Position numbers and translations under genes: made by a program
In this document: piece after piece, positions 156 through 58,650 of the stretch
How positions within the stretch are numbered: the stretch's first letter is position 1
Layout: each line of letters starts with the position of its first letter
Notes under the pieces: generated by a model
The model's input: only the letters and a program-made list of their open reading frames with translations
Databases searched by the model: none
Told to the model about the DNA's origin: nothing
Assembly: GCA_041389865.1 (NCBI GenBank)
Contig: JAWKRA010000004.1
Location: forward strand, 50,307-114,306
Source: Nannocystaceae bacterium
GTDB lineage: Bacteria > Myxococcota_A > Polyangia > Nannocystales > Nannocystaceae
Direction: 5' to 3'
DNA length: 64,000 bases

Positions 156-201
156 TTGATCTGTGCGAATTCGGTCATGATTTCGTGGTAGTCCGAAACC
201 G

Positions 202-3249: not shown

Positions 3250-3298
3250 GGCTCGATTCCGATCGATCCGTATTCGATCCAAACCGGCGCCACAATGA

Positions 3299-5800: not shown

Positions 5801-5951
5801 GCCCGAGGCCGCGTGACCCGCTCCCGAATGGGAGTGACGGGCGAGCGGCTTGGCGGCCGTCCACGACGGAGCGACACGGGAGCGCGGCCGCGAACGAAAA
5901 CCACTACGCGCAGAGGAACAGCCGCAGTACCGTCAGGAGGTCACGATACCC

Positions 5952-7319: not shown

Positions 7320-7455
7320 ACGGCCGCCGACGCGATCGATCCATGGAGCGGTCGCAGCAAACCACGACGAATGCGGCGATCCTTGCGCTCCCTCGCCCGC
7401 CGCGGGCCGGGTGCGAGTGACCTAAACTTCGGGGCAGGTTTTGATCGCGACGCGC

Positions 7456-7887: not shown

Positions 7888-8000
7888 GCTGCGAGCGTAC
7901 GCGATTCTCCACGGAGCTGCCCCGTGCTCCTCTCGCCACCCAGGCGCCGGGTCGCGGCGCGAAATCGTGCGACTCCTTGACCCTGTGGAGCGACCGACCG

Positions 8001-8354
8001 TCACCGATCGTCTTGGCTCGCAAGCGCCCCGAACACCGACTCCACCGTCGGGTCCCCCGCCCAGCGCTCGGAGTGGCAGTAGTTGCGGAGGGCCTCCACC
8101 AACTTGATGTCGGGCTCCTGCCCGATCGCGCTGACGACCTCTCGCTCGGTGAGGCCGCGCTGTCGGAGCGCGTCCAGGAGGCCCTTGAGGTGGCGAGCGA
8201 CCGCCTGCGCGAGCGCGTCGCCAGACTCGCGGGACCGGTCACGCTCCGTCAGGAGCCGCCGCGCGAACCGTTCGGGCGCCATGAGACCGGCCTGGGCGGC
8301 GACCCACGACCTGTGCCGGATACGCTCGAGGTGGGCGAAGTCGTCGTCAGTCAC
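8001..8354 (-). CDS. Hypothetical helical protein
   Basis: ORF overlaps the downstream lipoprotein gene by 4 nt. No motif recognised. Confidence 0.4.
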   Translation of the reverse strand: MTDDDFAHLERIRHRSWVAAQAGLMAPERFARRLLTERDRSRESGDALAQAVARHLKGLLDALRQRGLTEREVVSAIGQEPDIKLVEALRNYCHSERWAGDPTVESVFGALASQDDR

Positions 8355-21514: not shown

Positions 21515-21587
21515 GCCCCGAAAGCTCACGTCTGCGGCTGCCACCGCGCGTGGACTTGCAGCCGTGACGTGAGTATTGCTGCCCGCC

Positions 21588-40043: not shown

Positions 40044-42458
40044 TCAGGACTCGCCGTCCTGGGCCGGCGCGTCGTCGGCGGTCGCCAGCGCCGAGAGCTG
40101 ATCGATCGTCAGGAGCCGACCGACCCGCGGATCGTCGCTGTGCAGCTTCTCGTGGGCCAGCGGGTCGGCGCGCTCGAGCTCGCCAGGCTCGCCGCCCAGG
40201 CCCAGGAGCTGGCGAATCGCGCGGCGTGAGCCGTAGTAGTTGCCCGAGTGGTGATCCTCCTCGGTGTTGCAGCGCCGGATCTTCGACAGCGAGATCGGCG
40301 GGAGGTTCAGCATCTGCAGGGCCCGATCCCAGATCTGTCCGAGCCGGTTCTGATCGGCCGGGAACTCGAGCAGGCTGGCGAGCGTGAGCAGCAAGCCGGC
40401 GCGCTGGCCCGCGATCGTGTCGAGCGGCGCGCGCCCGCCGAGGTAGCCGAGATCGATCGCCCGCCAGAAGGCCTCGGCGGCGATGAGCAGGCGCTTGAGC
40501 TCGGACGGGCTGTGCGAGAGCCAGGCGTTGAACATCACGTCGGCCGCGAGCCCGCCCTCGGCCGCCGCGTCCTTGGTGTAGCGGATCACCGCCGGCAGCT
40601 GGCCGAGCGGGACCTCGGGGCCCTTGCCGGTCGGCACGTCGGTGGGCGGCTCACCCGGACCGAAGAAGCCGGCGCCGCGGAACGCGTAGAAGCGCTCGGC
40701 CTCGCCGGGCAGCTCGTCCCATAGCTCGCTGTATTGGGTGACGCGGTTCATGCTGCCGGCCGACCAGCCCAGGCCGCGGGCCGCCTCGCCGCTGACCTGC
40801 GAGCCCGCGACGCCGGGGTCGCGCGGGACCCCGCCCGCGCGCGCGTCCTCGGCGATGGCGACCAGCTGGAAGTCGAGGAAGCCGTCGTAGAAGTCGGCCT
40901 TGCCGTCGTGGTTGATGTCCTCGTAGCGCGAGACCACGGCCGGGTGCGCGGGCCCGATGAACTGCACGAAGCCCTCGACCCGCTGCTGCCGGTGGTACCA
41001 CTGGGCCTCGCGGATGCGGGCGTCGATGCCGGCGAAGTCCTCGCCCTTGGCGAACCCCTGCAGCAGCGCGTGGAGGCAGTCACAAGCCTCGGAGTCGACG
41101 ATCTTGTGGCCCTCGCCGGTGCGGAAGTAGGTCGAGTCCCACGACGAGTAGATGTCGGCGTCGGGGAACATCCGCGAGATCGCAAACCGCGTCGTCAGGC
41201 CCGCGCACTGGGCGTTCAGCATCAGCTTGTAGCCGCGCTGCTCGACCGCCACCTGCGAGGCCGCCATGTCGTTGGCGCCGAGGTTGGCGTGGCGGCTGAT
41301 CGCGAGGCCGACGAAGTACTCGTGGCCCATCTCGAAGTTCTCGTCGCGCGGGCTGGTGGTGCGGGTCCAGATCTGGATCTCCTGCCCGTCAGGGCCGGCA
41401 AACGGCGCCTTGAGGATCTCGTAGCCGCGCCAGCCGGGCGGCGTCGGGGCGCCCTCGGGGGCCGCCATCTCGGTGTACTTGTAGCGGTCGCGGAGGATCT
41501 CGTACTCGCCCGGGTGGAAGTCGTAGGCCGAGGCGAAGCCGAACCGCCAGACGTCCTTGGGGAGCTGCGCGTAGGGCGGGCTCTTGCGGGTGTAGCCGGC
41601 GAGCAGCTCCTTGACCTGGGCGGCGTGGGCCTCGGAGAGCGCCGGCCCGCGCATCTGCAGGAGCATCAGCGCGTGGTTGCGCAGCTCGGGGCGCCCGCCC
41701 TCCCCGGCCTCGGCCTCGATGAGCGCGAGGATGCGAGCAGCTGCCCGATCCGCCAGGTCGCGGAATTCGGGGTCCTTGAGGACGGTGGCGACCACGTGGG
41801 AGAGGACGGTGACGCAGGCCGAGCGCAGCTGCACGGCCTGGGCGCGGGCCTCGTCGCCCTCGGCGGCAGAGACCGCCGCGGCCGCGAGCACGGCGTCGAC
41901 CTGATCGAGCAGCGCCGCGCCCTGGGCGACCGAGAGCCGCTCTGGTCTCTCGGGCAGGTCGGGGTGGAAGGGGCTCGGCGGGAACAGCCGCTCGAAGCTC
42001 GAGCTGCGCCGCGACGAGATCCAGCGGGCCGCCGTGACCATGGTGTCGAGCGCGTCGAGCCCGCGCGGGGCCTCGCCGTCGGCGCTTGACGAGAGTGTCC
42101 CCTCGGACAGCAAGTAAAGCGGCGCCGCGCCGTGCAGCCCGCCGGTGAGGTCGAGCGGCGGCGCCTCGCCGCGGACCGCCTCGAGCTTGCGACGCAGCCC
42201 GCGACGCCCGTCGAAGCGGACCAGCACCCGGTGGCCGACGCCCTCCTGGACCGACGCCTGATCGGCGCCCTCGACGATGACGTGGTAATCGCGCGGACCC
42301 GTGAGCAGGAGGTGGAGGCCGTCCTCTGCAGCGTCAAAGCTCTGCTTGGCGGCCTCGTCGGCGGCGATCAGCTGACCGACGAATTCCCTGTCACCAAGCA
42401 CCACCTGTACACTCGTAACTCCCGATTGCGTCGGCATCTCGATCTCTCCTGTCACCAC
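40044..42458 (-). CDS. Large hypothetical protein (804 aa)
   Basis: High-GC3 ORF with no recognisable motif. The antisense ORFs are Arg-rich shadows. Confidence 0.5.
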   Translation of the reverse strand: MVTGEIEMPTQSGVTSVQVVLGDREFVGQLIAADEAAKQSFDAAEDGLHLLLTGPRDYHVIVEGADQASVQEGVGHRVLVRFDGRRGLRRKLEAVRGEAPPLDLTGGLHGAAPLYLLSEGTLSSSADGEAPRGLDALDTMVTAARWISSRRSSSFERLFPPSPFHPDLPERPERLSVAQGAALLDQVDAVLAAAAVSAAEGDEARAQAVQLRSACVTVLSHVVATVLKDPEFRDLADRAAARILALIEAEAGEGGRPELRNHALMLLQMRGPALSEAHAAQVKELLAGYTRKSPPYAQLPKDVWRFGFASAYDFHPGEYEILRDRYKYTEMAAPEGAPTPPGWRGYEILKAPFAGPDGQEIQIWTRTTSPRDENFEMGHEYFVGLAISRHANLGANDMAASQVAVEQRGYKLMLNAQCAGLTTRFAISRMFPDADIYSSWDSTYFRTGEGHKIVDSEACDCLHALLQGFAKGEDFAGIDARIREAQWYHRQQRVEGFVQFIGPAHPAVVSRYEDINHDGKADFYDGFLDFQLVAIAEDARAGGVPRDPGVAGSQVSGEAARGLGWSAGSMNRVTQYSELWDELPGEAERFYAFRGAGFFGPGEPPTDVPTGKGPEVPLGQLPAVIRYTKDAAAEGGLAADVMFNAWLSHSPSELKRLLIAAEAFWRAIDLGYLGGRAPLDTIAGQRAGLLLTLASLLEFPADQNRLGQIWDRALQMLNLPPISLSKIRRCNTEEDHHSGNYYGSRRAIRQLLGLGGEPGELERADPLAHEKLHSDDPRVGRLLTIDQLSALATADDAPAQDGES

Positions 42459-42524
42459 CTGGAACGGCCAGAACGTACCACAGGCGATCGGAGCAGGCGG
42501 CGCGACGGCGCGCGCCGTGGTGTC

Positions 42525-43412
42525 TCAATCCGCGCGATCGCTGGCGGCGAAGCGCTCGATGTAGCGATCGTAGGCGTCTTGCAGCGTGCGCGTCACCGCG
42601 CCGACCTTGCCGTCGGCGATCGGCGCTCCGTCGAGCTCGGTCACCGGCATGATGCCGCGCACCGACGACGTCAGGAACACCTCGTCGGCGGCGCGCAGCT
42701 CGTCGGGCAGGAGCGTGCGCTCCTCGACCGCGATCCCGAGCGCGTCCGCGAGCTCGACGATCGCGGTGCGGGTGATCCCCTGCAGGAGCCCGGTCTCGAG
42801 GCTGGGCGTGACGAGCCGCCCGCCCTGGACCATGAAGACGTTGCTGGTCGCCCCCTCGGCGACCTCGCCCTTCGCGTTGCAGAGGATCGCGTCGGCGGCC
42901 GCGCCGGCGATCGCCTGACGCAGCGCCTGGATGTTGTTGAGGTAGTTGCCGGTCTTGAGCGCCGGGTCGAGCTGGCGACGACCGATCTTGCGCACGTCGA
43001 CGATCTTCGCCGAGGTGCCCCGCTCGTAGAGCTCCTTGGGGGACAGCTCGAGGCGCTTGGCGATGACCACGAGCAGCGGATCGCGAGACACCCGCGGATC
43101 GAGGACGAGGTCGCCGGTGCCGCGGGTGACGACGACGCGGAGCATGCAGTCCGCGTCGCCGGTGGCCGCGCGCGCCTGCTCGATGGCGTCGCAGAGCGCG
43201 TGGTCGTCAAACGGGATCTCGAAGCCGATGCCCGCGGCGCTCTGGCGGAGCCGCGCGAGGTGACGGGCGCGCTCGACGACCACGCCGCCAGCTGTCCGCA
43301 AGGTCTCGTAGACGCTGTCGCCGTAGAGGAAGCCGCGGTCGAGGACGCTGACGGTCGCGTCTGCGGGATCGACGGCGCGCCCCAGGGACGAGAGGTAGAC
43401 CTTGAGGCCCAT
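42525..43412 (-). CDS. Class IV PLP-dependent aminotransferase (BCAT, D-Ala aminotransferase or ADC-lyase family)
   Basis: 295 aa with the family signature ..GATSNVF.V..G.L.TP......L.GITR... Confidence 0.8.
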   Translation of the reverse strand: MGLKVYLSSLGRAVDPADATVSVLDRGFLYGDSVYETLRTAGGVVVERARHLARLRQSAAGIGFEIPFDDHALCDAIEQARAATGDADCMLRVVVTRGTGDLVLDPRVSRDPLLVVIAKRLELSPKELYERGTSAKIVDVRKIGRRQLDPALKTGNYLNNIQALRQAIAGAAADAILCNAKGEVAEGATSNVFMVQGGRLVTPSLETGLLQGITRTAIVELADALGIAVEERTLLPDELRAADEVFLTSSVRGIMPVTELDGAPIADGKVGAVTRTLQDAYDRYIERFAASDRAD

Positions 43413-43586
43413 GGGGCGCCGACTATAGCAGCCACCCCGCCTCCGCGAACTGCGACGTCATCGTCAGTGGACGGTCGCGTCGACGTGACGCCGCGTGACC
43501 TTTTCGTCGCGGGTCGTTTCCGGTTAGGATAATCCTCCACGCTCACGCGAGCGGAGGGCGTCGGACGCCCGCAGGACCTCGGAGCT

Positions 43587-44210
43587 GTGCGAAGGATTCG
43601 CTGCCACTACCCCTCCGGTGACGCGTTCCTCGAGGCCCTGGCGACCACGCGCGAGTCGAACGCGCTCGAGGTCTACACGACCGAGCGCTTCGAGCCGGGC
43701 GAGGAGGTGCTGGTCGAGCTCTACTACACCGGGCTCGCGGCCAAGATGATGGTGCGGGCGGTCGGCATGCGCTGGCACAACGCGCGCCCCCGGCTGCGGG
43801 TCCGCGCCGGCGGTGAGCTGCGCTGCACGGGCTCAGAGTGGCGCAAGGTCGAGTTCCTGCGGGCGGTCGCCGCCGGCGAGGCCGAGCTGCCGGGGCGGCG
43901 TCGCAGCCTCCGTCACCCGGTGATCGTCGAGGTCGCGTGGCGCCGGGTCGGCGAGCCCGACCTCACCGCCTGCACGATCACCGAGCTGTCTGAGAACGGC
44001 GCCCTCATCACCACGAGCGCCGGGCTCGAGGTCGGCGACGAGGTGATCGTCGAGATCCGCACCCCGGGCTCGGCGCGCGCCCTCGAGGTGCTCTCGGTGG
44101 TCCGCAACCGCGATCATCCCGCCGGCGTCGGCGTCGAGTTCATGGCCCGCGACATCGGCGGGATCCATCGCTTGCGCGAGGTCATCCGCCGGATCGTCGA
44201 AGAGTCGTGA
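43587..44210 (+). CDS. Tandem PilZ-domain protein
   Basis: Two PilZ-like beta-barrel halves (RR..R....V.V......G..TELSENGALI) of the kind common in Myxococcota. Confidence 0.55.
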   Translation: MRRIRCHYPSGDAFLEALATTRESNALEVYTTERFEPGEEVLVELYYTGLAAKMMVRAVGMRWHNARPRLRVRAGGELRCTGSEWRKVEFLRAVAAGEAELPGRRRSLRHPVIVEVAWRRVGEPDLTACTITELSENGALITTSAGLEVGDEVIVEIRTPGSARALEVLSVVRNRDHPAGVGVEFMARDIGGIHRLREVIRRIVEES

Positions 44211-44216
44211 GTCGCG

Positions 44217-44606
44217 TCAGGTCCCTGGCGCGTGCGGCGTTCGCTGGCATCGTCGGCGATCGACGATCCGCAGCTTGTTGTTGGCCTTGGCGGTCACGGT
44301 GAGCTCCTTGCCGCGGGCCACGTGCACGCGTCGCCGTCGCGTCTCGCCGCTGGCGCCGTCGCGCACCTCGACGACCAGGCTGCCGCCGCGGGCCTCGGGG
44401 GCCTGGGCGCACTCGCCAGGGAGCAGCCGCTCGCCGCCCGCCGACAGGGTCAGGGGTCGATCGGGCTCGGAGACGAAGCAAAGGCGCGGCGGCCCGTCGG
44501 GCTCACACGCGCGTGCGTCGTCGCGGCGCCAGCCGTGGGCCGGCGCGCAGGCCGAGGCCGCGACCACCAGCGCGAGCAGCCGCGTCGCCGCCCGCGTATG
44601 GCACAC
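44217..44606 (-). CDS. Small lipoprotein
   Basis: GTG start, then signal and lipobox TRLLALVVAASAC. The plus-strand frame opposite is Arg/Ala shadow sequence. Confidence 0.35.
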   Translation of the reverse strand: MCHTRAATRLLALVVAASACAPAHGWRRDDARACEPDGPPRLCFVSEPDRPLTLSAGGERLLPGECAQAPEARGGSLVVEVRDGASGETRRRRVHVARGKELTVTAKANNKLRIVDRRRCQRTPHAPGT

Positions 44607-44615
44607 TCGGGGTCG

Positions 44616-45128
44616 ATGGCCCGACTCCCGCGACGTCGCCGACGCCTTCAGGCGCGAGAGGGTCGCGTCGATGTCGCGCGCGTCGTCGAGGACAAGCTGC
44701 GCGCGCTGGTCCCCGAAGAGGTCCGCGTGCTGCTGCAGGTGCGGGAGGTCTGGCCGCGGATCGCCCCCGGCCGCTTGCAGACCCGGACCTGGCCGGCGGC
44801 CGTCTCGGGCGGCGAGCTCGTCGTGCACGTGCATGACAACCAGTGGCTACACGAGTTGAACTACTTGCGGAAGGAGCTCGAGGACAACCTCCGCGCCGCC
44901 TGCCCGCGCCTCGGGATCGAGCGAATCCGCCTGCGCCTCGGCTCGGTCGAGCGGCCGGTCCCGGCCTCCGAGGCCCCCCCGCGCCCCGCTACCCCGCGCG
45001 CGCGCATGACGGAGGAGCCGGACCGCGGCACGCTCGAGGCGCTCGAGACGGTGCGAGATCCAGAGCTCAAGCAGCTGATGGCCCGCACCCGCGTGATGCT
45101 CGGGCGCCCGCCCGAGCGCACGAGCTGA
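44616..45128 (+). CDS. DUF721/DciA-like protein
   Basis: WPRIAPGRLQTRTWPAAVSGGELVVHVHDNQWLHELNYLRKELEDNL matches the DUF721 core. Confidence 0.5.
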   Translation: MARLPRRRRRLQAREGRVDVARVVEDKLRALVPEEVRVLLQVREVWPRIAPGRLQTRTWPAAVSGGELVVHVHDNQWLHELNYLRKELEDNLRAACPRLGIERIRLRLGSVERPVPASEAPPRPATPRARMTEEPDRGTLEALETVRDPELKQLMARTRVMLGRPPERTS

Positions 45129-45449
45129 GCGAAGATCGATCGTCGCCGGCCGCCGAAACGCCACCGAGGACGCCTCGCAGCCGCCACACCATCGCGTAGA
45201 CCTCCTCCACGCGCGACGCGGCGCGTCCGAGTCGTTCGCGCGGCGTCCCGCGCCGTCCGGGGCGTCGCTGTCGGTGCGTCAAAAGGCCAAGGGACGGGCT
45301 GTGCAACAAGCTTCGGCGACGAAGAGCGCGGCGTTCGAGGCGGCGCGGGGCGATGCCGGGAATCCTCGGACGCGCTGCTAGCTGTTGCGTATCTCCCCAC
45401 TGCCCTGCATGATGCGAGCACGCGGGACGCGGTCGCCGCGCGAGCGCTC

Positions 45450-47180
45450 ATGCACTCCCTCCTCGACGTCATGAATGAGGCGCTCACGGCCGTTAACGCG
45501 GTGATCTGGAGCGACATCGTCCTCTACCTCGTGCTCGCCACCGGCGTGCTGTTCACGGTCTGGAGCGGCTTCTGTCAGTACCACGCGCTCAGCCACGGCT
45601 CGGCGGTCACGGCTGGCAAGTACGACGACAAGGACGACCCCGGGGCGATCAGCCACTTCCAGGCGCTCTCCGCCGCGCTGTCGGCGACCGTGGGCCTCGG
45701 CAACATCGGCGGGGTCGCGGTCGCCATCGCGCTCGGCGGGCCCGGGGCGATGTTCTGGATGTGGGTGGTGGGCCTGGTCGGCATGGCCCTTAAGACCACC
45801 GAGGTCACCCAGGCGATGATGTTCCGCAACACCGACGACCCCGACAACCCGCACGGCGGGCCGATGTGGGTCGTCGACCAGGGCATCGCCAAGCACTTCC
45901 CTGCGCTCAAGGCGTTCGCGCGGCCGCTCGGCGTGCTGTTCTGCATCACGCTGCTCATCGCCACCATCACCGGCGGCAACATGTTCCAGGCGTGGAACGT
46001 CGGCATCGTCACCCGCGACATCGGGGTGCCCGAGCAGGTCGTCGGCGTCATCCTGGCGCTCTTGGTCGGCCTGACGATCCTCGGCGGCATCAAGCGGATC
46101 GGCGCGGTCGCGGGCCGCATCGTCCCGTTCATGTGCGTGATGTACCTGCTGGCCGCCACCTACGTGCTCGTCGTCCACATCGAGCGCCTCCCCGACGTCT
46201 TCCGCCTGATCTTCGCCTCTGCGTTCAACCCGGCCGAGGCGTCCGGGGCGTTCGTCGGCGGCACCTTCGGGCTCGCGTTCCTGTGGGGCATGAAGCGGGC
46301 GCTGTTCTCGTCGGAGGCTGGCCAGGGCTCCTCCCCCATCGCCCACTCGGCCGCCAAGACCCACGAGCCGGTGCGCGAGGGCGTGGTCGCCGGGCTCGAG
46401 CCGTTCATCGACACGCTCGTGGTCGCCACCCTCACGTCGCTCGTGATCCTCTCGAGCGGCGCCTGGAACCGCGACGGCGAGACCACGCTGGCCCAGGCCC
46501 CGGCGATCGAGGCGGTCGGCGACGGCGGCTGGAAGGTCGCCGACACGCCGCTGCCGCCCAAGACCGAGGAGGCGCAGGCCGTCAGCGGCCCGTGGGATCC
46601 GGGCAAGAACGTGTTCCTGATCGCCCGCTACGGGCCCATCGACGAGGACACCGCCGACAACCTCCACCGCATCCCAGGCCAGATCAAGCGCGACGACGAC
46701 AGCTCGCTGCGCGTCGTCTGGGAGCAGGTCGGCGACGCCGACGATCCGGTCACCGAGGCGCCCAAGCTCGAGACCCTCGAGGTGTTCGTCGACTACCCGA
46801 GCGCCGCCCTGACCAGCTACGCGTTTGACCGCGTCACGCCGGGCCTGGGCAAGTGGCTGGTGCTCGCGGCCTCGTGGCTGTTCGCCGTCTCGACCATGAT
46901 CTCGTGGTCCTACTACGGCGAGCAGGGCGTCATCTACATCGCCGGGCAGCGCGCGGTGCTCCCCTACAAGGTGCTCTACTGCGTCTTCATCCTCATCGCC
47001 TGCAGCGGGCTCATCACCACCGACGCCGACCTCGACAACCTCACCGCGCTCGGCACGGGCGTGATGCTGTGGGTCAACATCCCCATCATGCTGCTGTTCG
47101 GCGCCGTGGCCATGCGCGCCTACCACTCGTACTTCAAGCGCCTGCGCGCCGGCGAGTTCGAGCAGCGCGACGCCAGCTGA
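45450..47180 (+). CDS. Sodium:alanine (AGCS-family) symporter with an internal soluble insert
   Basis: GPGAMFWMWVVGLVGMALKTTEVTQA and about 11 TM helices. A ~130-aa hydrophilic insert lies at 46440–46830. Confidence 0.85.
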   Translation: MHSLLDVMNEALTAVNAVIWSDIVLYLVLATGVLFTVWSGFCQYHALSHGSAVTAGKYDDKDDPGAISHFQALSAALSATVGLGNIGGVAVAIALGGPGAMFWMWVVGLVGMALKTTEVTQAMMFRNTDDPDNPHGGPMWVVDQGIAKHFPALKAFARPLGVLFCITLLIATITGGNMFQAWNVGIVTRDIGVPEQVVGVILALLVGLTILGGIKRIGAVAGRIVPFMCVMYLLAATYVLVVHIERLPDVFRLIFASAFNPAEASGAFVGGTFGLAFLWGMKRALFSSEAGQGSSPIAHSAAKTHEPVREGVVAGLEPFIDTLVVATLTSLVILSSGAWNRDGETTLAQAPAIEAVGDGGWKVADTPLPPKTEEAQAVSGPWDPGKNVFLIARYGPIDEDTADNLHRIPGQIKRDDDSSLRVVWEQVGDADDPVTEAPKLETLEVFVDYPSAALTSYAFDRVTPGLGKWLVLAASWLFAVSTMISWSYYGEQGVIYIAGQRAVLPYKVLYCVFILIACSGLITTDADLDNLTALGTGVMLWVNIPIMLLFGAVAMRAYHSYFKRLRAGEFEQRDAS

Positions 47181-47186
47181 GCGCGG

Positions 47187-48262
47187 TCACCCGCGGCTGA
47201 TGAGCATGTCGGTCGTCGACGAGGCGGCGGCCTCGTGGGCGCCGCTGGCCTCGTCGAGCGGCGGCATCTCGACGTCGACGACGCCCGGGCGCAGGAACCA
47301 GCTCGCCGCGGTCCGATCGGTGATGAAGTACTCGAACAGCAGCGCCGCGACCTTCTCGCGGCCGGTCGGCGATGGGTGGACGCCGTCCCAGATCATGTCG
47401 GCGCGCTCGTAGGTGAGGCCGTCGTGCTCGCGCGGGACGACCCCGTCGGCCCACAGGTACGGGCCCCAGGCCAACCACGGGCTGCGCACGGGGCCCTTCT
47501 CGGGATCGTAGTTGAGGTTGGGGTCGCCGCGGATCTGATCGCGGATGAGCCACTTGATCGCAAAGCCGCTCTCGTAAGCGTGCGGCTCTGGGCTGAGCGG
47601 GATCTCCGAGTAGCCGCCGTAGGCGCGGCTCGAAGGTGAACGATCTGCAGGTTGGCGAACCGCTCGACGAGGATGTGCATCGTGTTGACGAGGCACTCGT
47701 AAGAAGCGCTTGGGCTCCTCGGGGGAACGGTCGCGGACTGGGCCTGGTCAGGCTCTTGAGCCACACCGCCTGGACCTGCTCGTTGGTGAGGCCCTCGGCG
47801 GCGACGCGCTGATCGATCGTCGGCCAGTATTCGGACGGGCCGCCTCCATGATCTCGGCCGACTTGCGCGGCTGGGCGCCGTTGATCGTCACGAGCGCGGG
47901 GTGCATCGCCGGGCTCACCGAGACCAGGTGCTGAAGACCTGAAACTCGCTGTTGGTGTTCAAAAGCCCGACCGAGAGCAGCCCGATCTTGCCGTCCTCCG
48001 CCGGGCTCCCGTCGGCAGCGCGCGGCACGATCCGAGCGGCCTTGCCGAGCCCGCGGTGAAGTGCTCGATCGGGGGGTGGTTCACCCCCCCGGGGTAGAGG
48101 CCCCCCTCCTCGCCCTTGTACGTGCCCAGCCCCAGGCTCGTCAGCGGAGCGCAACCAATGGAGTCCCGCGGCGGGTTCGCGCGAACGAAGTCCGCCATGA
48201 ACTTTGGCTTGCGCCGCGGTGCGCCAGTCAGGGGCATCTGTGCGTCACGAACTAACGATACC
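47187..48262 (-). pseudogene. Frameshifted SGNH/GDSL-like hydrolase gene
   Basis: The C-terminal piece holds DGVHPSPTGREKVAALLFEYF. N-terminal pieces sit in other frames (47393..47764, 47915..48154, 47959..48267). Homopolymer runs of 7 C and 6 G mark the shift sites. Confidence 0.35.
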
Positions 48263-48347
48263 AGCACTGCGACGCGACTCCTCGCGCGAGCGTGGCCGAA
48301 GGGTCAGCGCGGAACTCCGCGCGGTCGCGGGTGCCTCCTGAAGCGGG

Positions 48348-49499
48348 TCAGAGGCCGAGCCACCGGGCGATGATATTGCGCTGAATCTCGGAGGTGCCAG
48401 AGTAAATCGTGCTGGCGACAGAATCGCGCAGCACCCGCTCGACGCCGTACTCGGCCATATAGCCGTAGCCGCCGAGCACCTGCACGGTGTCGAGCGCCGC
48501 ACGCAGCAGCGCCTCGCTGACGAACAGCTTGGTCATCGACGCCTCCAACGTGGCGTTTCGACCCTGACTCAAGCGCCAGCCTCCGCGATACGTGAGCAAG
48601 CGCGCGGCCTCGAGCTGTACTCTCATGTCGGCGATCTTGTGACCGACCGCCTGGAACTTGCCGATCGTCTGACCGAACTGTGAGCGGGTGCGCGCGTAGT
48701 CGATCGCCGTGCGCAGCAGCCGGGCCATCACGCCCACGTGGCTGGCGAACAGGCCGATGCGCTCCCAGTCCATCGAGCGCGTGAACTCGGCCGAGCCCGT
48801 GCCCGGCGAGCCGAGGATCGCCGAGGACGGCACGTACGCTTCGTCGAAGACGACCTCGCCCATCGGCGAGGTGCGCAGGCCCATCTTGGTGTCCGCGCGC
48901 GTCACCGAGACGCCCTTGGTGTCGGCCGGGACGATGAACGCGGTGATCTGCCCTTGGAAGCCCTTGTCGGGGTCGGTGACCGCGTAGACCAGGAACACGT
49001 CGCCGACCGGCGCGTTGGTGCTGAAGCACTTGGCGCCGGTGATGCGGTAGCCGTCGCCGTCGGGCAACGCGCGTGTCTTCATGGACAGGGCGTCTGAGCC
49101 AGACCCGGGCTCGGTCATGCAGTTGACCGCGATCAGCGAGCCGTCGCTGAGGCCCTGGAGGTAGCGGCGCCGCTGCTCCTCGTTGCCCGACTTCCAGATC
49201 GGCACGACGCACGAGAACAGGTGCGCGCCGAGGGAGAACACGAGGCCGCCGTCATCGCAGTGCTCGCCGAGCGACTCGAACGCGAGGATGGCGCTGAGCG
49301 CGTCGAGGCCCGCGCCGCCGTACTCGGCCGGGACCACGATGCCGGGCAGGCACATCTCGCCGCAGCGCTGCCACAGCTCGCGAGGGAAGACGCCGTCGCG
49401 GTCGCGCTCGATGACCTTGCCGTCGTTGAGGTGATCACGGGCGAAGCGCTGGATCGTTCGCTGCAGCTCGCGCTGGTCGGCCGTCAGCTTGAAGTCCAT
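48348..49499 (-). CDS. Acyl-CoA dehydrogenase
   Basis: Full-length 383-aa ACAD fold (MDFKLTADQRELQ...YGGYGY..EY..ER..RD). Confidence 0.9.
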   Translation of the reverse strand: MDFKLTADQRELQRTIQRFARDHLNDGKVIERDRDGVFPRELWQRCGEMCLPGIVVPAEYGGAGLDALSAILAFESLGEHCDDGGLVFSLGAHLFSCVVPIWKSGNEEQRRRYLQGLSDGSLIAVNCMTEPGSGSDALSMKTRALPDGDGYRITGAKCFSTNAPVGDVFLVYAVTDPDKGFQGQITAFIVPADTKGVSVTRADTKMGLRTSPMGEVVFDEAYVPSSAILGSPGTGSAEFTRSMDWERIGLFASHVGVMARLLRTAIDYARTRSQFGQTIGKFQAVGHKIADMRVQLEAARLLTYRGGWRLSQGRNATLEASMTKLFVSEALLRAALDTVQVLGGYGYMAEYGVERVLRDSVASTIYSGTSEIQRNIIARWLGL

Positions 49500-49544
49500 C
49501 GTCTCCGCCCTCCGCCGCCAGCCTACACGAATCCCGCCGCGGCA

Positions 49545-51083
49545 TCACCCGCGCGTCTTCAGCCGCTGGTAGTCGATCTTGTCGGTCGAGGTCTTGGGCA
49601 GGACGTCGAGCACCTCGAAGCGATCTGGGATCATGTACGCGGGGAGGTTTCGCGCGCAGTGCTGCTTGAGCGCGAGCACCGACGGCGGCGCCGACCCCCC
49701 GCAGGCGAGGAACGCCTTGATCACCAGGCCGTCGCCCTCCGGCAGGGCCAAGACCGCGACCTCCTCGAGCGCCTCGTGGCGATAAAGCGCCGCCTCGATC
49801 TCGCCCAGCTCGACCCGGTAGCCGCGCAGCTTGACCATTCGATCGCGGCGCCCGACGACCACGAGCGCGCCGTCTGCGTCCTCGAACCCGACATCGCCCG
49901 TGCGGTACCAGCCGTCATCGGTGAAGGCCGCGCGCGTGCGTTCGGGCAGGTTCAGTAGCCGCGCGTCACACCTGGCCAAAGCACTGGGCTCGCCTCCTCG
50001 CCGACCGCGACGGGGCGCCGCGCTCGTCGGCGACTCGGACCTGCTGGTGCGGACAGGCCCGACCGATCGGGTACGGCGCTCCGCTCTGCTGGGATCTGCG
50101 CCGGGGTCTCCTGAAACGTGCAGACGTTGGTCTCGGTCAGCCCGTAGGGTTGAAGTAGCGCGGCGCCGGCCACAGGGCCGTCAGCGCGCAGGTGTGACCG
50201 GGAACACCTCGCCCGGCGAACAGGACGATCCGCGGCATGCGCGAGTCGTAGCGATCGAGCCGCCCGTACTGGGCGAGCATCGCCAGGATCGACGGCGCCG
50301 AGTACCACACCGTGATCTGCTGGCGTGCGATCCACTGCGCCAGGCTCCGCGGCTCGCGGGCGACCTCCTCGGCGACAGGTGAACGCTCGCACCTGCCCCG
50401 AGGGGCACGTACAGATCGAGGATCGAGAGGTCGAAGTGGAACGGCGCGTGCGACGAGTAGCGATCGTCCGGGGTCGGCGAGGTCAGGTCGCTGGCCCAGT
50501 CGACGAACGAGACCGCGTTCTCGTGGGAGATCATCACCCCCTTGGGCAGGCCGGTCGAGCCTGACGTGTAGAGGATGTAGGCGAGCTCCTCGGGCGCCGG
50601 CTCGCTGGTCGCGCACGGCTCGCTCGCTCGCTCGGCGAGCGCCTGATCAAGACCGCCGACCTCGGTGCGCACACGCACGATCCGCGGCGCGGCGCCGCCG
50701 GCCGCGAGCGCCTCCTCGAGCGCCGGCGCGAGCGACTCCTCGACGAACACGACCGCGACGGCGCAGTCGCCGAGGATGTAGGCGCCGCGCGAGGCGGGCG
50801 CGCTCGGGTCGACCGGCACGTAGGCGGCGCCTCGCTCGAGCGCGCCGAGGATCACCGCGACCACGTCGCTCGACTTGTACATGCACAGGCCGACGCGATC
50901 GCCGGGCGCGACGCCGACGGCGTGGAGGAAGTCACGGACCTTGCCAGCGCGGGCGCGCAGCGCCTCGTAGCTGACCTCATGGTCACGTCGCGGATCGCTG
51001 ACCGCGACCCGCTCCGGGTGCCTCGCCGCCGCCGCGAGGAAGCTCCCGTGCAACGACCGGGGGGCCTCGCCGCCGTCCTGCAT
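49545..51083 (-). pseudogene. Adenylate-forming enzyme (acyl-AMP/CoA ligase) split across four frames
   Basis: ILYTSGSTGLPKGV (A3) lies in 50181..51083. YGLTETN lies in 49952..50392. GDVGFEDADGALVVVGRRDRMVKLRGYRVELGEIE (A8–A10) lies in 49545..49979. At least three frameshifts. Confidence 0.6.
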
Positions 51084-51085
51084 GG

Positions 51086-51340
51086 CTAGTCGCGCTTGGA
51101 GAGCACGAACCGAGCGATCGCGTCGATCGAGCCGAGGTTCTCGATTCGAACGTCCTCAGGGCTGATCTCGATGTCGTAGGTCTCCTCGAGGAAGGCGAAC
51201 ATCCGCAGCGCTTCCATCGAGCGGAGCAAGCCGCTCTTTACCAGCGACAGCGAGTCCGTGATCTCGTCCGGGTTCCCCCCAGGGACAATCTCCTGCACGA
51301 TGAACTCTCGAATCGTCAGCTTGATCGCACTCTCGTCCAT
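51086..51340 (-). CDS. Acyl carrier protein
   Basis: 84 aa with phosphopantetheine attachment motif ITDSLSLVKSGLL. Confidence 0.75.
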   Translation of the reverse strand: MDESAIKLTIREFIVQEIVPGGNPDEITDSLSLVKSGLLRSMEALRMFAFLEETYDIEISPEDVRIENLGSIDAIARFVLSKRD

Positions 51341-51721
51341 ACAGAACGCTCCCTAGCAGCCCGTCCACTCCCGCGCCGGGAGGCGGCACGCGACGTGACT
51401 CGACATGGGTTGATTGTAGAGAGACGCGGCGGGTTTGCAAAGCGCCGTGTTCGACGCGCTCTCCTGTCGCGACGCGCATGAACGCGCAGCCAGGCGACGC
51501 GCGCTGTCGGCCGACGCGCTGTCGCCCGACAGCCCGCCCGCCGCGCGCGCTGGTAGACCCGATGCACACACAATTGTGCGAACGTCGAGTAGGCGCTCGC
51601 CCGACTTCGCCCCTCCCACGCGCGACGCCGCGTCAGCAGTTGACCGGGAGCGCCGCGGTCTGCGAGAGTCGACGCAGGACAAGGACGTCTCCGCCCCGTC
51701 GCAGTCCCGAGCGCGAAACGA

Positions 51722-52702
51722 ATGGCCTCCCTCGACCGCATCGACGTGCACGCCCACGCCTTCCCCGAGGCGTACCTGCGCACCATCGGCAAGCGCTACC
51801 CGCAGAAGCTCAAGCTCCAGGAGCCGTGCAACGGCAAGCCGCTCATCGGCTACTGGTCGCGCTCGCCGTTGCCGTCCTGGGATCTCGACGCCCGGATCGC
51901 CGAGATGGATCGCGACCGGGTCCGCACCGAGGTGCTCTCGGCCCCGACGATCTACAGCCACCTCGACGACCAGAGCGCCGAGGACTGCCGGCTGCTCAAC
52001 GACTTCCAGGCCGACCTCGTCGGCAAGGCGCCGGGCCGGTTCCTCTCGCTCCTGCACCTGCCCGTCAACGACGTCGAGGCGTCGCTGCGCGAGCTCTCGC
52101 GCTGGAAGGACCGCTCCGAGGCGACCGGCGTGGTGTTCGGCTCGAACATGGGCGGCGTGTACCCGGGCGACCCGCGGCTGCTCCCGATCTGGGAGGCGAT
52201 CGACAAGCTCGGGATGCCGACGCTGATCCACCCGGTGCCGCCGCCGGCGGTCTACGGACCCGTCATCCCGACGATCCTCCTGTTCCCGCTCGACTCGACC
52301 ACGGCCGCGGCGTCGATCATCTACAGCGGGCTGTTTGAGCGGTTCCCGGGGCTCAAGATCATCATCCCGCACCTCGGCGGCGCGCTGCCGTTCCTGCGCG
52401 AGCGCCTCGACATGGCGATCGACATCGCCGGGTTCCCGACCGGGCAAGGGCAGGACCTCCCCAAGCGACCGAGCCGCTACGTCGATCGCTTCTACTTCGA
52501 TCTCGCGCAGGGCTACCACGGCCCGGCGTTCGACTGCACGTGCGCGGTCGCGGGGATCGACCACCTGCTCTATGGGACCGATCACTTCTTCCTCGACAGC
52601 GCCTGGCGCCCGCGGCTGGGCGCGTTCATCGACAGCCTGCCGCTGTCGGTGCGCGACCGAGCGGCGATCCTCCCGCGGCAACGCCGAGCGGATCTGCGGT
52701 AG
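51722..52702 (+). CDS. Amidohydrolase_2 family metal-dependent hydrolase or decarboxylase (ACMSD-like)
   Basis: IDVHAHAFP at the N-terminus, HLGGALPF, and a metal-binding Asp near the C-terminus (YGTDHFF). Confidence 0.8.
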   Translation: MASLDRIDVHAHAFPEAYLRTIGKRYPQKLKLQEPCNGKPLIGYWSRSPLPSWDLDARIAEMDRDRVRTEVLSAPTIYSHLDDQSAEDCRLLNDFQADLVGKAPGRFLSLLHLPVNDVEASLRELSRWKDRSEATGVVFGSNMGGVYPGDPRLLPIWEAIDKLGMPTLIHPVPPPAVYGPVIPTILLFPLDSTTAAASIIYSGLFERFPGLKIIIPHLGGALPFLRERLDMAIDIAGFPTGQGQDLPKRPSRYVDRFYFDLAQGYHGPAFDCTCAVAGIDHLLYGTDHFFLDSAWRPRLGAFIDSLPLSVRDRAAILPRQRRADLR

Positions 52703-52703
52703 T

Positions 52704-53367
52704 TCACAGATCGACGGGGCGCGTCGACGCTTCAGCGAGCACCGACTCGAAGCGGCGCACGGTGAGGCCGGCGCCGCGACGCAGCGCGACCGCGATCGAT
52801 GCGGCCGGCCAGGCTCCGGGCAGGCGAAAGCGCCGAACCGCGAGGTCATCATCGATCGTCCCCGAGAGCCAAATCTGTATCTCGGGACCGCCGAGCGTGT
52901 AGGCGAAGTCGCCGAGCGGGAGCGCGAGCCCCATGCCGCGAGCCTTGATGTAGGCCTCCTTCCCAGGCGTCCAGTAGTCGAAGCGATCGCGCTGCGCCGG
53001 CTCCGGGAGCGCGCGCAGGGCCGCGACCTCGGGCGCCGCGAAGAAGTGCTCGGCGATCGAGATCCCCGACGAGCGCCGCGACGTGTCCTCGACGTCGACG
53101 CCGATGTCGCCGCGAGCGACGGCGCACACCGCCAGTCCGTCGGTGTGCGAGAGGTTGTGGCGCAGGCGCCCGAGCCGATAGGCGGGGTCGAGGAGGTCCG
53201 GTCACGTCCGTGCGGGCCGATCGTGAACTACCGCAACGCCGCCGGCGGGCGCCCGCGTAGGCCGGAAGGCGTGACCCGGGCGAGCGCGTGGCTGACGAGG
53301 TAGGGGTGGCGGGGTGACGGTTGAACAGGTAGCAGCCGTGACGCCGTCGCTCCTCGTCGTCGAGCAT
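52704..53367 (-). pseudogene. Sfp-type 4'-phosphopantetheinyl transferase with a frameshift
   Basis: RLRHNLSHTDGLAVCAVARGDIGVDVED and WTPGKEAYIKARGMG lie in one frame that opens at an internal stop. The N-terminal MLDDEERRRHG lies in another frame. Confidence 0.5.
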
Positions 53368-53569
53368 CGCGCGGTAAGCCGCCAGCAGATCGGGATCGAG
53401 GATCTGCTCGGGGGCGCGCCCGGTACGTGGACCTCCCCTCCGCGAAACCGGCGCCCGCTCTGCCGTCGAGGGCAGGTCTCCTCCCCGCGCGCCGGGGTCA
53501 AGTGTTGCAGAACCCGGCCGCGCGGGTCACTCTCCCGGGCGCATGACGAGCGCACTGGCAGACGCGGGG

Positions 53570-54750
53570 TCTTGCTCATCAACCTCCGGCACCCCGACGC
53601 GCCGACGACCGCCGCCGTTCGCCGCTATCTCCGCGAGTTCCTCACCGGCGGATCCGCGGGTCATCGACCCGTCCCCGCCGCTGTGGCGAGGCGGATCCTC
53701 TGCTGATCATCTTGCCGCCGCGGGCCCGCGCCTCGGCCGCGGCCTACCGCAAGATCTGGGAGCCCGACGGCTCGCCGCTGCGGGTCCACGGCGAGAAAAA
53801 CGCTCGCGCGCGGCGTCGCGGCCCAGCTGCCCGACGCCAGGAGGTCGCGCGCGGCGATGCCTTGCTGACGCGCCGTCGATCGAGGACGGGCTCTCGCAGC
53901 TGGCCGCGCGGCTGCGACCGCGTCACCGTGCTCCCGCTCTACCCGCAGTACGCCGCAAGCTCGACCGGCTCGACGCTCGGGCGCGGCATCTACATGGCTC
54001 GCCGCGCGCCTGTGGAACACGCCCAACCTCCGGGTAATCCCGCCGTTCTACGCCGATCGAGACCTCGACGCAGCCGCGCAGCGCGGGCGCGACACCCTGG
54101 CGAGCTTCCCCGCCGACCACGTGCTGTTCAGCTTCCACGGCCTGCCGGGCAGATTCACAAGGCGATCTAACGGCCCGGTGCCTGCGCGACGGCTGCTGCG
54201 ATCAGCTCACCGGCCTTAACCTCTACTGCTACCGCGCCAGTGCTTCTTTTGCCGCCCACGCGCTCGCCTCGCGCATGGGGCTCGCGCGCGAGCCGCTACA
54301 CGATCTGCTTTCAGTCGCGGCTGGGGCAGGACGCCGTGGATCCGCCCGTTCACCGACGAGCTGCTCGTCAGCCTGCCGGCCCAGGGCGTCCGGCGGCTGG
54401 CGGTGCTGTGCCGAGCGTTCGTCGCCGACTGCCTCGAGACGCTCGAGAGATCGGGCTGCGGGCCGCCGCCGACTTCAAGGTCGCCGGCGGCGAGCTGCGG
54501 CTCGTCCCGCCGTCAACGCCGAGCCGGCGTGGATCGACGCGGTCGCGCGGATGGTCGCCGAGCCGGGCCCCCGGCTCCCTGTCCTACCAGACATGTCACG
54601 GCGACCGCGCGACCGCGCGAGTCGGCGTAGCGGCCCGCGGCGATCAAGCCTCGAACACCTGTCTCATTCGACAGGTAGAAAGCTCCGGCGCGACCGCGGC
54701 TCGACGCGTCTCCACGGCGCGCGGAGCGAGCGGCCCGTCGCGGCCTGAAT
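53570..54750 (+). pseudogene. hemH: Ferrochelatase broken by at least 6 frameshifts
   Basis: Conserved blocks appear in all three plus frames: VLLINL..PDAPTTAAVRRYLREFL, DPRVIDPSPPLW, AAAYRKIWEPDGSPL, SIEDGLSQLAAR, GCDRVTVLPLYPQYAASSTGSTL, NLRVIPPFY, HVLFSFHGLP, YTICFQSRLGQDA, GVRRLAVLCRAFVADCLETLE. Confidence 0.6.
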
Positions 54751-54756
54751 GAAGGG

Positions 54757-55278
54757 TCAGGCCAGCCCGAGCAGATCGACGTAGGCGACCGCGACCCGGT
54801 CCTCGTCGGCGAGCTCGAGCGCGGCCGACAGCGCCGCGAGCCGGCGCCGGCCCGCGTCCTCGTCGAGCTCGGGGCCGAGCACCGCCTCGAATTCGACGAA
54901 CGCGCCGAGCCCCTCGACCTCGTCGAGGTGGATCCGAACGCCGCGCCAGCAGAGCAGCTCGCGACGCTTGCAGACCTGGCCGCGGACGCCGAGCGCGGCC
55001 GCGAGCGCCTCGGCCAACGCCGGCGCGTCGGCGACCGGGACCAGGCGATAGTCGCTCGCGCGCGCCGAGGCGGCGTCGGCCCGGCGGTACCAGATCAGCT
55101 CGGCGTCGCCGCTCGAGGACTCGCGCAGCTTGAGCCGCCCGTCTCGGCAGTGAAAGAAGGTGTCGCGCTGGGTCAGCGACCAGCGCCACGTAGCGCCGAG
55201 CTCGAGCGCGGCGGCCCGCGCCCGCGCAAGCGACGGGTGACGGGCCTTGAGCTCGATGTTGCGCCGCGGCCCGCTCAC
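54757..55278 (-). CDS. CYTH-domain protein (class IV adenylate cyclase / triphosphate tunnel metalloenzyme family)
   Basis: NIELKAR at the N-terminus (the ExExK-type motif) and a 173-aa size typical of CyaB-like proteins. Confidence 0.7.
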   Translation of the reverse strand: MSGPRRNIELKARHPSLARARAAALELGATWRWSLTQRDTFFHCRDGRLKLRESSSGDAELIWYRRADAASARASDYRLVPVADAPALAEALAAALGVRGQVCKRRELLCWRGVRIHLDEVEGLGAFVEFEAVLGPELDEDAGRRRLAALSAALELADEDRVAVAYVDLLGLA

Positions 55279-55793
55279 CCGGTCTTGCGCCTCCGCGCCG
55301 CCGGGCCGCGCCGAGCCCCCGCGAGCCGCAGCACGGCCTCGAAGTGGCCGGCCTCGACCGGCTGGACCGACAGGCGCATGCCCTTTTGGACCACCATCAT
55401 CTTGGCGAGCGACGGGTCGGCCTTGAGCGCCTCGAGGGTGACGACCTCGTCGAAGCGCTCGACGAACTCGACGTCGACGAGCAGCCAGCGCGGGTCCTCG
55501 CGCTTCGACTTGGGATCGTAGTAGCGCGACTTGGGGTCAAACGCGGTCTCGTCGGGGTAGGCCTGGCTGGCGACGCGCGCGAGGCCGACGACCCCGGGGG
55601 GTGTCGCGCTCGAGTGGTAGAACAGCGCCCAGTCGCCGACCGCCATGTCGTCGCGCATGTAGTTGCGGACCTGGTAGTTGCGGATCCCGTCCCACGAGGT
55701 CTTGCCGTCGCGGGCGAGGTCGTCGATGGAGTACGAGCCCGGCTCGCTCTTCATCAGCCAAAAACGGGGAGGTCTCGCGGTGCGGGCGGCCAT
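55275..55793 (-). CDS. EVE (PUA-like) domain protein
   Basis: FWLMKSEPGSYSIDDL...WDGIRNYQVRNYMRDDMAVGDWALFYHS matches the EVE signature. Its stop overlaps the CYTH start by 4 nt. Confidence 0.75.
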   Translation of the reverse strand: MAARTARPPRFWLMKSEPGSYSIDDLARDGKTSWDGIRNYQVRNYMRDDMAVGDWALFYHSSATPPGVVGLARVASQAYPDETAFDPKSRYYDPKSKREDPRWLLVDVEFVERFDEVVTLEALKADPSLAKMMVVQKGMRLSVQPVEAGHFEAVLRLAGARRGPAARRRKTG

Positions 55794-57089: not shown

Positions 57090-57329
57090 CCAGGAGTCCT
57101 CGCCGAACTCCGATCGCGAGCGCCACGTGCAGGAAAGGACAGGCAGCACGCCCTCATCGCTCCTCGACGCGCCGCCCGTGCGCCTCGCGTCCGGCCGGTT
57201 CGATCGGTCCTTCCATGCACATGGATCCCTCGTCCCAGGCCCTGGGGGAGCGCTCCGGGCTCGACGCGGCGACCCCCTGGCTCGTCGCGCCTGCTTCGAC
57301 CCCGCGGCGCCGCGCGGTGATCGACCTGT

Positions 57330-58394
57330 ATGAACGAGCAGGTTGACCCCGCGGCGCGCGACGACGAGGCGCCGTCGCTGTTCACCCTCGACGGGCCCAT
57401 CGACTACCGCGCCGCCTTTCCCGAGCTCGGGATCGATCCAGCCGAGGTGCCCGCGGTGGTCGCCGCCAGCGACACCTCGTGGGCGAAGATCGACGCCGCC
57501 CGCCGCCAGCTCGCGCGGCTCCACGCGCCGGGGCTCGCCTGCTTCGCGCTCGGCTCGGTCGGTCGCCTCGAGTCGTCGGCGATCAGCGACCTCGACCTCG
57601 CGGTCGTGCAGGTCGACCCGTCGCGCGACGCGGCCGCGTGCGAGCGGGACCGCGACGACGTCATCGCCTCGCTGCGCGCGCTCGGCCTCGACGTCCACCA
57701 AAAGACCTTCGATCGCGTGGTCCGCCTCGACGCGATCGTCCGCGACGTCGGCGGGCGCCACGACAGCAACGACCACCTGACCTACCGGGCGTTGCTCTTG
57801 ACCGAGGGCGCGTGGCTGCTCGGCGAGGGCGCGTGCTCCCAGGCGCTGCGGACCCTCTTCGAGGTCTACAGCCGCGGCCGCATCAGCCGCGGCCGCTCGC
57901 TGAGCTCGCTCGACAACGATCTGCAGCGCTACTACCGAACCCTCTGCGTCGACTACCGCTTCAAGGTCGAGGAGGCGCACAAGCAGTGGGCGGTCCGCAA
58001 CCTCAAGCTCCGACACTCGCGCAAGCTGTGGCGGCTCGCCAACCTCTCGCTGTTCTGCGCGGCCGCGGCCCAGCCCGAGCGGACGCGGGTGCGATGGATC
58101 GCCGCGCGCCTCGGCGCCCCGCCGCTGTGGCGGATCATCGAGGTGCTGCGCGGGCTCGACGGGAGCGGGCTGTGCGGTCCGCTGGTCCGCGCGTTCGATC
58201 CGTTCCTGGACGCGCTCGCCCGCCCCGAGACCCGCCGCGCGCTCGACGAGCTGGCCCACGAGCGGCGCTGGCAGTCGCCGATCTATCAATCGCTGCACGA
58301 GAACGGCGAGCGGCTCGAGGCGGCCGCCCACGCCGTTGTTGATCACCTGTGGACCCGCTGCCACGATCACCTGCTCCGCTTCGGCGTGCTGTGA
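57330..58394 (+). CDS. Pol-beta-superfamily nucleotidyltransferase (GlnD/GlnE/DUF294-like)
   Basis: ALGSVGRLESSAISDLDLAV matches G-S-x10-D-x-D like GlnD GGYGRGEL.P.SDIDL. A ~250-aa helical substrate-binding region follows. Confidence 0.5.
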   Translation: MNEQVDPAARDDEAPSLFTLDGPIDYRAAFPELGIDPAEVPAVVAASDTSWAKIDAARRQLARLHAPGLACFALGSVGRLESSAISDLDLAVVQVDPSRDAAACERDRDDVIASLRALGLDVHQKTFDRVVRLDAIVRDVGGRHDSNDHLTYRALLLTEGAWLLGEGACSQALRTLFEVYSRGRISRGRSLSSLDNDLQRYYRTLCVDYRFKVEEAHKQWAVRNLKLRHSRKLWRLANLSLFCAAAAQPERTRVRWIAARLGAPPLWRIIEVLRGLDGSGLCGPLVRAFDPFLDALARPETRRALDELAHERRWQSPIYQSLHENGERLEAAAHAVVDHLWTRCHDHLLRFGVL

Positions 58395-58650
58395 TCACGC
58401 GCCTCGCTCGAGCCGAAGGACCTCGGCGCGGGGCGAGCGGTCGCCGACCGCGGCGGATCACATGTCTTCTTGAGCAGGTTCTCTCCGAAACCGCGGAGCT
58501 GCACGATCAGACAGGCCACGGAGCGCCGACGCCACGTCACGGAGCCTGGTGAGCGAGCCGCGTCGGCGGACGCCCCGATCGCTGTCGCCGAAGCCTGAGA
58601 GCCCGCTCGTCGGCGTTCGGCGCCGCGATCACCCGACGCCGCGCGGAATC

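Follow-up and report, generated by a model that had tools for sequence, protein, structure and literature searches.

We analysed a stretch of 64,000 nucleotides (hereafter the window; about 70% guanine and cytosine, GC) from contig JAWKRA010000004.1 of a Nannocystaceae bacterium (assembly GCA_041389865.1, positions 50,307 to 114,306). In its segment 47187-54750, four genes are frame-broken: those for a hypothetical protein of 337 amino acids (aa), a stand-alone amino-acid adenylation enzyme, a 4'-phosphopantetheinyl transferase (PPTase) and ferrochelatase (hemH). Nucleotide alignment to intact copies in independent assemblies showed that the frameshifts are limited to three patches, at 47562-48049, 49952-50375 and 52672-54717 (about 0.5, 0.4 and 2.0 kb). 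We suggest, with a probability of roughly 93%, that these patches are unpolished long-read, Nanopore-like sequence left in the assembly. Judged from sequence comparison, the frame-broken genes are almost certainly an assembly artefact and, taken as biology, would not be a real feature. On this account, none of the four genes is broken in the living bacterium. An earlier reading of this DNA (the original prediction) had reported four frame-broken genes among genes that read through, and the alignment bore this out.

The disruption can be seen in the window itself. A plot of GC content by codon position gave clean coding frames over most of 46.8-55.4 kb, with a signal that was blurred or jumped at about 47.5-48.3, 49.9-50.3 and 52.6-54.7 kb. 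A seven-state model of GC content at third codon positions (GC3) placed frame switches within one gene, and gaps that did not look like genes, solely in the 47.2-54.75 kb segment. Outside this segment, the 3' end of each coding segment was within a few bases of an in-frame stop (GC3 model and a check of open reading frame (ORF) ends). Because the switches occur only in the segment and coding frames end properly elsewhere, the frame disruption is real and local.

The comparators came from other samples and assemblers; they were short-read contigs of the population to which the window belongs, retrieved by exact-protein look-up. They belong to the NCBI metagenome-assembled genome (MAG) GCA_020431275.1 (L081, L084, L092), to ENA (L082, L083, L087-L090, L094) and to Logan (L085, L086, L091, L093). 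Four stretches served as controls (40738-47549, 48101-49899, 50401-52639 and 54761-55300). The three patches together held 85 mismatches and 79 insertion or deletion (indel) events (38 insertions, 41 deletions, sizes 1-4) per 3117 aligned columns, whereas the four controls held 24 mismatches (0.2%) and 0 indels per 11,390 columns. The clustering of indels was highly significant (79/3117 patch columns vs. 0/11,390 control columns, Fisher's test, p = 8e-54). L081 was 99.5% identical to the window over 40738-50165, and every indel fell within 47633-48049 and 49952-50147. Identity between L084 and the window was 100% for most of 50.4-52.6 kb and throughout 54.8-55.3 kb; over 57231-58486 L091 differed from the window by one substitution.

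Patch 1 (47562-48049) is in the middle of the 337-aa gene. In comparison with L081, L082 and L083, the window alone carries 10 mismatches there, together with 8 indels of one base. Patch 2 (49952-50375), in the middle of the adenylation gene, has 6 mismatches and 13 indel events of 1-2 nt, among which deletions predominate. Patch 3 (52672-54717) has 69 mismatches and 58 indel events of 1-4 nt, of which 33 are insertions and 25 deletions, over 2070 columns aligned with L084; in each 100 bp, the difference is about 3-4 mismatches and 3-5 indel events. The patch spans the 3' end of an amidohydrolase gene, the PPTase gene, an intergenic spacer, hemH and part of the spacer between hemH and a CYTH-domain gene. 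The density of events is thus 6.1% in patch 3 ((69 + 58)/2070) and about 3.5% in patches 1 and 2.

All patch differences are private to the window. Eight comparator contigs agree with one another, since L082, L083, L085, L086, L093 and L094 match L081 or L084 against the window wherever they cover a patch difference. No independent assembly reproduced any indel of the window, and all comparators carry open frames. A single contig, L084, has intact genes for the CYTH-domain protein, hemH (361 aa), the PPTase (249 aa), the amidohydrolase (326 aa), an acyl carrier protein (ACP, 84 aa), the adenylation enzyme (518 aa) and an acyl-CoA dehydrogenase (ACAD, 383 aa). Independent support at patch 3 came from L093 (Logan, 99.94% identical to L084) and L094 (ENA, 99.7% identical to L084). 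The comparator assemblies are imperfect too; for example, near window position 52091, inside the amidohydrolase gene, L093 is without one G that both the window and L084 have, which is probably an error in L093.

The kind of change in the patches resembles that of raw reads. The ratio of indels to substitutions was about 1:1, so that every gene under a patch is shifted many times. The patch mismatches were spread over the three codon positions as 28/26/28, whereas real divergence in the ACAD gene (L084 vs. the window) gave 70/46/123. On the + strand, 53 of the patch substitutions were A↔G changes in either direction, 7 were C↔T and 25 were transversions; the A↔G polarity was the same in all three patches (binomial p = 8e-10). 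The borders of the patches ignore those of genes: patch 3 opens 30 nt ahead of the amidohydrolase stop and extends through two genes and two spacers; patches 1 and 2 each lie in the middle of a gene whose ends are clean or almost clean.

In their report on Nanopore reads, Delahaye and Nicolas (PMC8486125, section 17) describe that, in the read's own orientation, A↔G confusions are 3-5 times as frequent as transversions and C↔T confusions are slightly above transversions. They also give a raw error of about 5.7-8%, greater in high-GC genomes, and an excess of deletions over insertions. The A↔G strand bias and the rate of about 6% in patch 3 match these figures for raw R9-type reads and point to a Nanopore-like platform. 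The source contig is 120,879 bp long, whereas short-read contigs from this population do not exceed about 10 kb; this length and the error signature together led us to infer a long-read platform. Localised indel sequencing error, which the original prediction had offered as one possibility, is supported by the intact near-identical copies, the indel-free flanks, the 1:1 ratio, the lack of codon bias, the gene-blind borders and the A↔G strand bias.

Homopolymers, on which the original prediction had leaned, are not what supports sequencing error. It placed several breakpoints in such runs. We found no indel on GGGGGG at 48071 and 51059, on CCCCCCC at 48084 or on CCCCCC at 48101, 49695 and 51275, and these runs match the comparators. 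Most indels are in runs of 1-3 bases, and 44 of the 79 (56%) touch an identical neighbour, compared with about 40% by chance. With long runs correct and the enrichment in short runs mild, homopolymer-driven error was rejected as the main cause.

The four genes differ in how much of each is affected. The gene of the 337-aa protein (47187-48198, minus strand) has 8 indel events, all of one base and all frame-changing; it is intact in L081 (337 aa) and in an ENA contig (360 aa). In the public annotation just the last 169 codons are represented, as MEZ4426251.1 (R3A51_01015, 169 aa), which equals window 47187-47696 exactly. The name "SGNH-like" given to this protein before has some footing in a weak match to block V of PF00657 (Lipase_GDSL; E = 0.016, 15.8 bits) and in the motifs GLSNT and DGVHPSPTG, spotted by eye only. 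However, the score is under the cut-off of 23.6, and the protein had no match among NCBIfam models or PDB sequences.

The adenylation gene (49545-51083, minus strand; 518 aa when intact) is broken only mid-gene, with 13 indel events, 13 of them frame-changing, all within 49952-50375 in comparison with L081, L085 and L086. The 518-aa enzyme of L084 has full AMP-binding and AMP-binding_C domains and scores 366 bits with TIGR01733, over the cut-off. The gene for the PPTase, of Sfp/HetI type (52704-53466, minus strand; 249 aa when intact), has 27 mismatches and 19 indel events in the window, 15 of which change the frame. L084 carries it intact at its positions 1834-2583 (249 aa, ACPS and AASDHPPT_N domains).

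The ferrochelatase gene hemH (53543-54630, plus strand; 361 aa when intact) is heavily broken: 31 of its 35 indel events change the frame, and its 39 mismatches are split 13/14/12 among the codon positions. The intact hemH of L084 (671-1756, 361 aa) aligns with PF00762 over positions 2-315 of 317 (E = 5e-101). Its product scores 251 bits with TIGR00109, above the cut-off of 124.6, and is therefore a full-length ferrochelatase; the window's hemH is this gene overlaid with noise. The matches listed in a protein search with this copy did not include its own cluster and were relatives in Myxococcota at 68% identity or less. At the 5' end, where a +1/-1 pair 12 nt apart had been described, the alignment instead gave -1/+1/-1 at 53547/53550/53554 and then +1/-1 at 53587/53591. 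The minimum numbers of frameshifts proposed before (one in the PPTase, three in the adenylate-forming enzyme, six in ferrochelatase) hold as lower bounds and are large undercounts of the 19, 13 and 35 indel events. No second hemH, PPTase or adenylation-domain gene was found within the 64-kb window.

The start of patch 3 also reaches the Amidohydro_2 gene (51722-52702, plus strand, 326 aa). It is full length, as had been stated for it, for the ACAD and for the ACP. The latter two are identical to comparators base for base, and the amidohydrolase has the right length but altered C-terminal residues. A compensating pair of indels (-1 at 52693 and +1 at 52672) and 3 substitutions rewrite the C-terminus, which reads ...AAILPRQRRADLR in the window and ...AAILRGNAERILR in the intact copies (L084, Logan). 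The protein record MEZ4426256.1 (326 aa) equals window 51722-52702 exactly, altered C-terminus included. Both MEZ4426256.1 and MEZ4426251.1 are encoded on the 120,879-bp source contig and contain residues that arise solely from the window's private indels. The exact-protein look-up with the window's amidohydrolase gave no comparator match because its C-terminus is altered by noise.

The frameshifts could instead reflect real decay of hemH, the PPTase, the adenylation enzyme and the 337-aa gene in the sampled strain. The deposited sequence is indeed frame-broken and co-existing haplotypes are present at the locus. The affected genes adjoin one another, and a single carrier-protein pathway accounts for three of them; a joint loss would thus be plausible biologically. 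However, the flanks and the interleaved genes match intact assemblies with 0 indels and almost no substitutions, which leaves no time for 3% substitutions and 3-4% indels to accrue neutrally. The indel ratio of about 1:1 and the even spread over codon positions are also not those of decay. The damage is either sub-genic or spans several genes, crossing borders and spacers and clipping the amidohydrolase. Bidirectional A↔G change with a single strand polarity fits a sequencing signature and no known mutational process. Finally, loss of the only ferrochelatase seen in the 64-kb window would be costly. We thus consider real pseudogenes very unlikely, and the suggestion that hemH and the acyl-activation set are being lost together found no support, as independent assemblies carry the genes intact.

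Reductive pseudogenisation in host-restricted bacteria, for example Mycobacterium leprae, is dominated by substitutions, affects whole genes, respects gene borders and comes with synonymous divergence in the flanks. The present segment resembles such decay in that neighbouring genes have multiple frameshifts and their residues are still recognisable. However, substitution dominance, whole-gene spread, respect for borders and flanking divergence are all absent here.

Another explanation is that the patches are a consensus of collapsed strains, in which diverged haplotypes were blended, rather than unpolished raw-read error. Two haplotypes, L081 and L084, occur in one MAG bin (GCA_020431275.1), and we compared them over window 45658-55300. 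Left of about 50.2 kb, L084 shares 78-82% identity with the window, over a block that covers the C-terminal part of the adenylation enzyme, the ACAD, the 337-aa gene and a Na/Ala symporter; right of 50.4 kb the identity is 100%. The switch near 50.2 kb is inside the adenylation gene, in patch 2, and could reflect the recent recombination or transfer of a block, or else a chimera among the short-read contigs. Short-read contigs also break within patches 1 and 2, which a blend of strains might produce.

However, in a three-way alignment the window has the L084 allele at only 5 of the 47 columns at which it differs from L081, and its private changes are mostly at sites where L081 and L084 agree. 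The known haplotypes are identical across patch 3, where L084 matches the window except for the window's noise. In addition, blending would not yield a strand-polar A↔G bias or a 1:1 indel ratio. A collapsed-strain consensus is accordingly highly improbable as the origin of the patches.

Slimmer still are the chances that the indels are real through extremely local, strand-polar hypermutation (A↔G changes and 1-4-nt indels) in one strain. If this were true, an unknown targeted mutagenic process would be destroying hemH, the PPTase and the adenylation enzyme in three sub-genic patches and leaving the DNA around them all but untouched. Programmed ribosomal frameshifting or other recoding of the shifted genes has nothing in its favour beyond the frame changes themselves and can practically be dismissed, as there are 8-31 frame-changing events per gene with no shared slippery motif, and all relatives, like the near-identical assemblies, have each gene as one open frame.

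We therefore return to unpolished long-read sequence as the preferred explanation. The source would be a long-read or hybrid MAG, in which correction made the contig almost error-free over most of its length. Three stretches would have been left uncorrected and would keep raw single-molecule read error, most likely that of Oxford Nanopore. The read or reads behind the patches would have the window's + orientation, and the common polarity suggests that one read of at least 7 kb is possibly behind all three. Polishing probably failed at breaks of the assembly graph, bridged by long reads that were never corrected, or where co-existing haplotypes made read placement ambiguous.

Short-read contigs do end inside patch 1 (L082 at 47741, L083 at 47786) and inside patch 2 (L081 at 50165, L085 at 50144, L086 at 50205). 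Together with the divergence of a second haplotype at patch 2, this fits graph breaks or ambiguous placement. Two other causes of polishing failure were rejected. Coverage dropout driven by GC content is not indicated by a patch GC of 0.68-0.74, which is ordinary for the window, and repeats are not indicated either, as the patches have no second copy within the window.

Several points weigh against this explanation. The weakest part of the account is why polishing failed where it did, and for patch 3, within which the known haplotypes do not otherwise differ, it offers no cause. For the R3A51 MAG, the source of the window, both platform and pipeline are inferred. Insertions slightly exceed deletions in patch 3 (33 vs. 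25), which is opposite to raw Nanopore reads as described in PMC8486125; patches 1 and 2 together have 16 deletions vs. 5 insertions. The density of about 3.5% in patches 1 and 2 is below that of raw reads, so that both would need partial polishing. Lastly, L084 is the one full comparator for most of hemH; L094 contributes just 318 bp at the 3' end of the gene.

That long-read MAGs retain some indels and frameshifts is well documented (PMC9262707; proovframe, 10.1101/2021.08.23.457338; Kastor, PMC12007338). The closest likeness is to Nanopore "pseudo-pseudogenes", in which small indels fragment conserved genes and accurate references restore single frames. Typical error left after polishing is sparse, genome-wide and found in long homopolymers, whereas the errors found here are dense (3.5-6%) and fall in just three patches of a 64-kb stretch, with long homopolymers correct. 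For this reason the patches look like wholly unpolished stretches and not like systematic consensus error.

Another known problem is that of regions left uncorrected by short-read polishers because the reads can be placed in more than one way (Polypolish, PMC8812927). The window is similar to such regions in that clean sequence alternates with stretches of long-read error, here at short-read breaks and haplotype divergence. However, the Polypolish paper deals with repeats in one isolate genome; in our case no patch is a repeat in the window, and the ambiguity would presumably come from co-existing strains.

In the public MAG record, the ferrochelatase, PPTase, adenylation enzyme and 337-aa protein look broken or fragmentary, and R3A51_01015 and the C-terminus of the amidohydrolase would be products of noise. 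Conclusions drawn from this genome about haem auxotrophy, pseudogene load or the loss of a biosynthetic cluster would be misleading. The same features may serve as a diagnostic for unpolished Nanopore patches that needs no reads: indels and substitutions at about 1:1, mismatches that are even over codon positions, an A↔G excess with strand polarity, and patch borders blind to genes.

Between the patches, the ACAD family gene (48348-49499, minus strand, 383 aa) is intact and has no differences from L081, L082 and L083. Its best model matches in NCBIfam are PigA (443 bits, cut-off 500) and the RedW prolyl-peptidyl-carrier-protein (prolyl-PCP) dehydrogenase (418 bits, cut-off 650), both under the cut-off; the next ACAD model scores 305 bits. 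The protein thus resembles the PigA/RedW family without passing as a certified member. The carrier protein (ACP or PCP) gene (51086-51340, minus strand, 84 aa) is intact as well, its DNA is identical to that of L084, and the exact 84-aa protein is found on 9 contigs from NCBI, ENA and Logan. Its best model match, an ornithine-lipid ACP, is below the cut-off. The CYTH-domain gene (54757-55278, minus strand; PF01928, E = 1.6e-12) forms a clean right flank, with no differences from L084 over 54761-55300. Exact-protein look-ups of the CYTH ORF and of an ORF at 21576-22820 gave no match, for which the choice of start codon is probably to blame.

Prolyl-carrier-protein oxidation modules are represented by PigI/PigG/PigA and RedM/RedO/RedW. 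The intact locus is similar to them: it has a stand-alone adenylation enzyme, a carrier of about 84 aa and an ACAD that matches PigA and RedW (NF053553, NF045652), with an Sfp-type PPTase nearby. It differs in that its ACAD is under both equivalog cut-offs. No downstream pyrrole-using genes were identified at this locus. On the basis of gene content, the locus resembles the modules that convert proline to a pyrrolyl carrier protein in prodiginine-type pathways, and ferrochelatase is a mere neighbour that falls under patch 3.

The best match to the ACAD protein in a genome scan was 60% identical. A carrier protein, an adenylation enzyme and a PigA/RedW-like ACAD are also adjacent in distant bacteria (Acidobacteria, Cellvibrionaceae, Longimicrobiales and others; loci L001-L007), with ACAD identities of 48-60%. 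The recurring trio suggests a conserved, uncharacterised module for the oxidation of aminoacyl carrier proteins.

Elsewhere in the window, the first ~3.3 kb have a lower GC content (60-67%) and contain an integrase-like ORF (1990-3600, minus strand). Two further stretches that the GC3 model marked as resembling non-coding DNA, 1-3366 and 5794-8022, were considered as noise patches and rejected; the first includes the integrase-like gene in low-GC DNA and the second holds an intact repeat protein (5850-7319, 489 aa). A Ser/Thr-kinase-TPR protein is encoded at 3317-5800 (plus strand). It matches the kinase profile only from position 122, which means that the N-lobe is missing; this lobe was possibly cut off by an inserted element. 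No RNA genes were found in the whole window by Rfam and tRNA scans.

Over 31224-37531, the only length difference between L092 and the window is an in-frame one of 21 bp, which lies within a cluster of substitutions at 37330-37506. This cluster resembles genuine strain variation, unlike the frame-breaking patches. An 832-aa vault-like protein is encoded at 30752-33250 (minus strand) and is also present in L092; it matches the shoulder domain of the major vault protein (PF11978, E = 8e-29) and has a vault repeat (PF17795).

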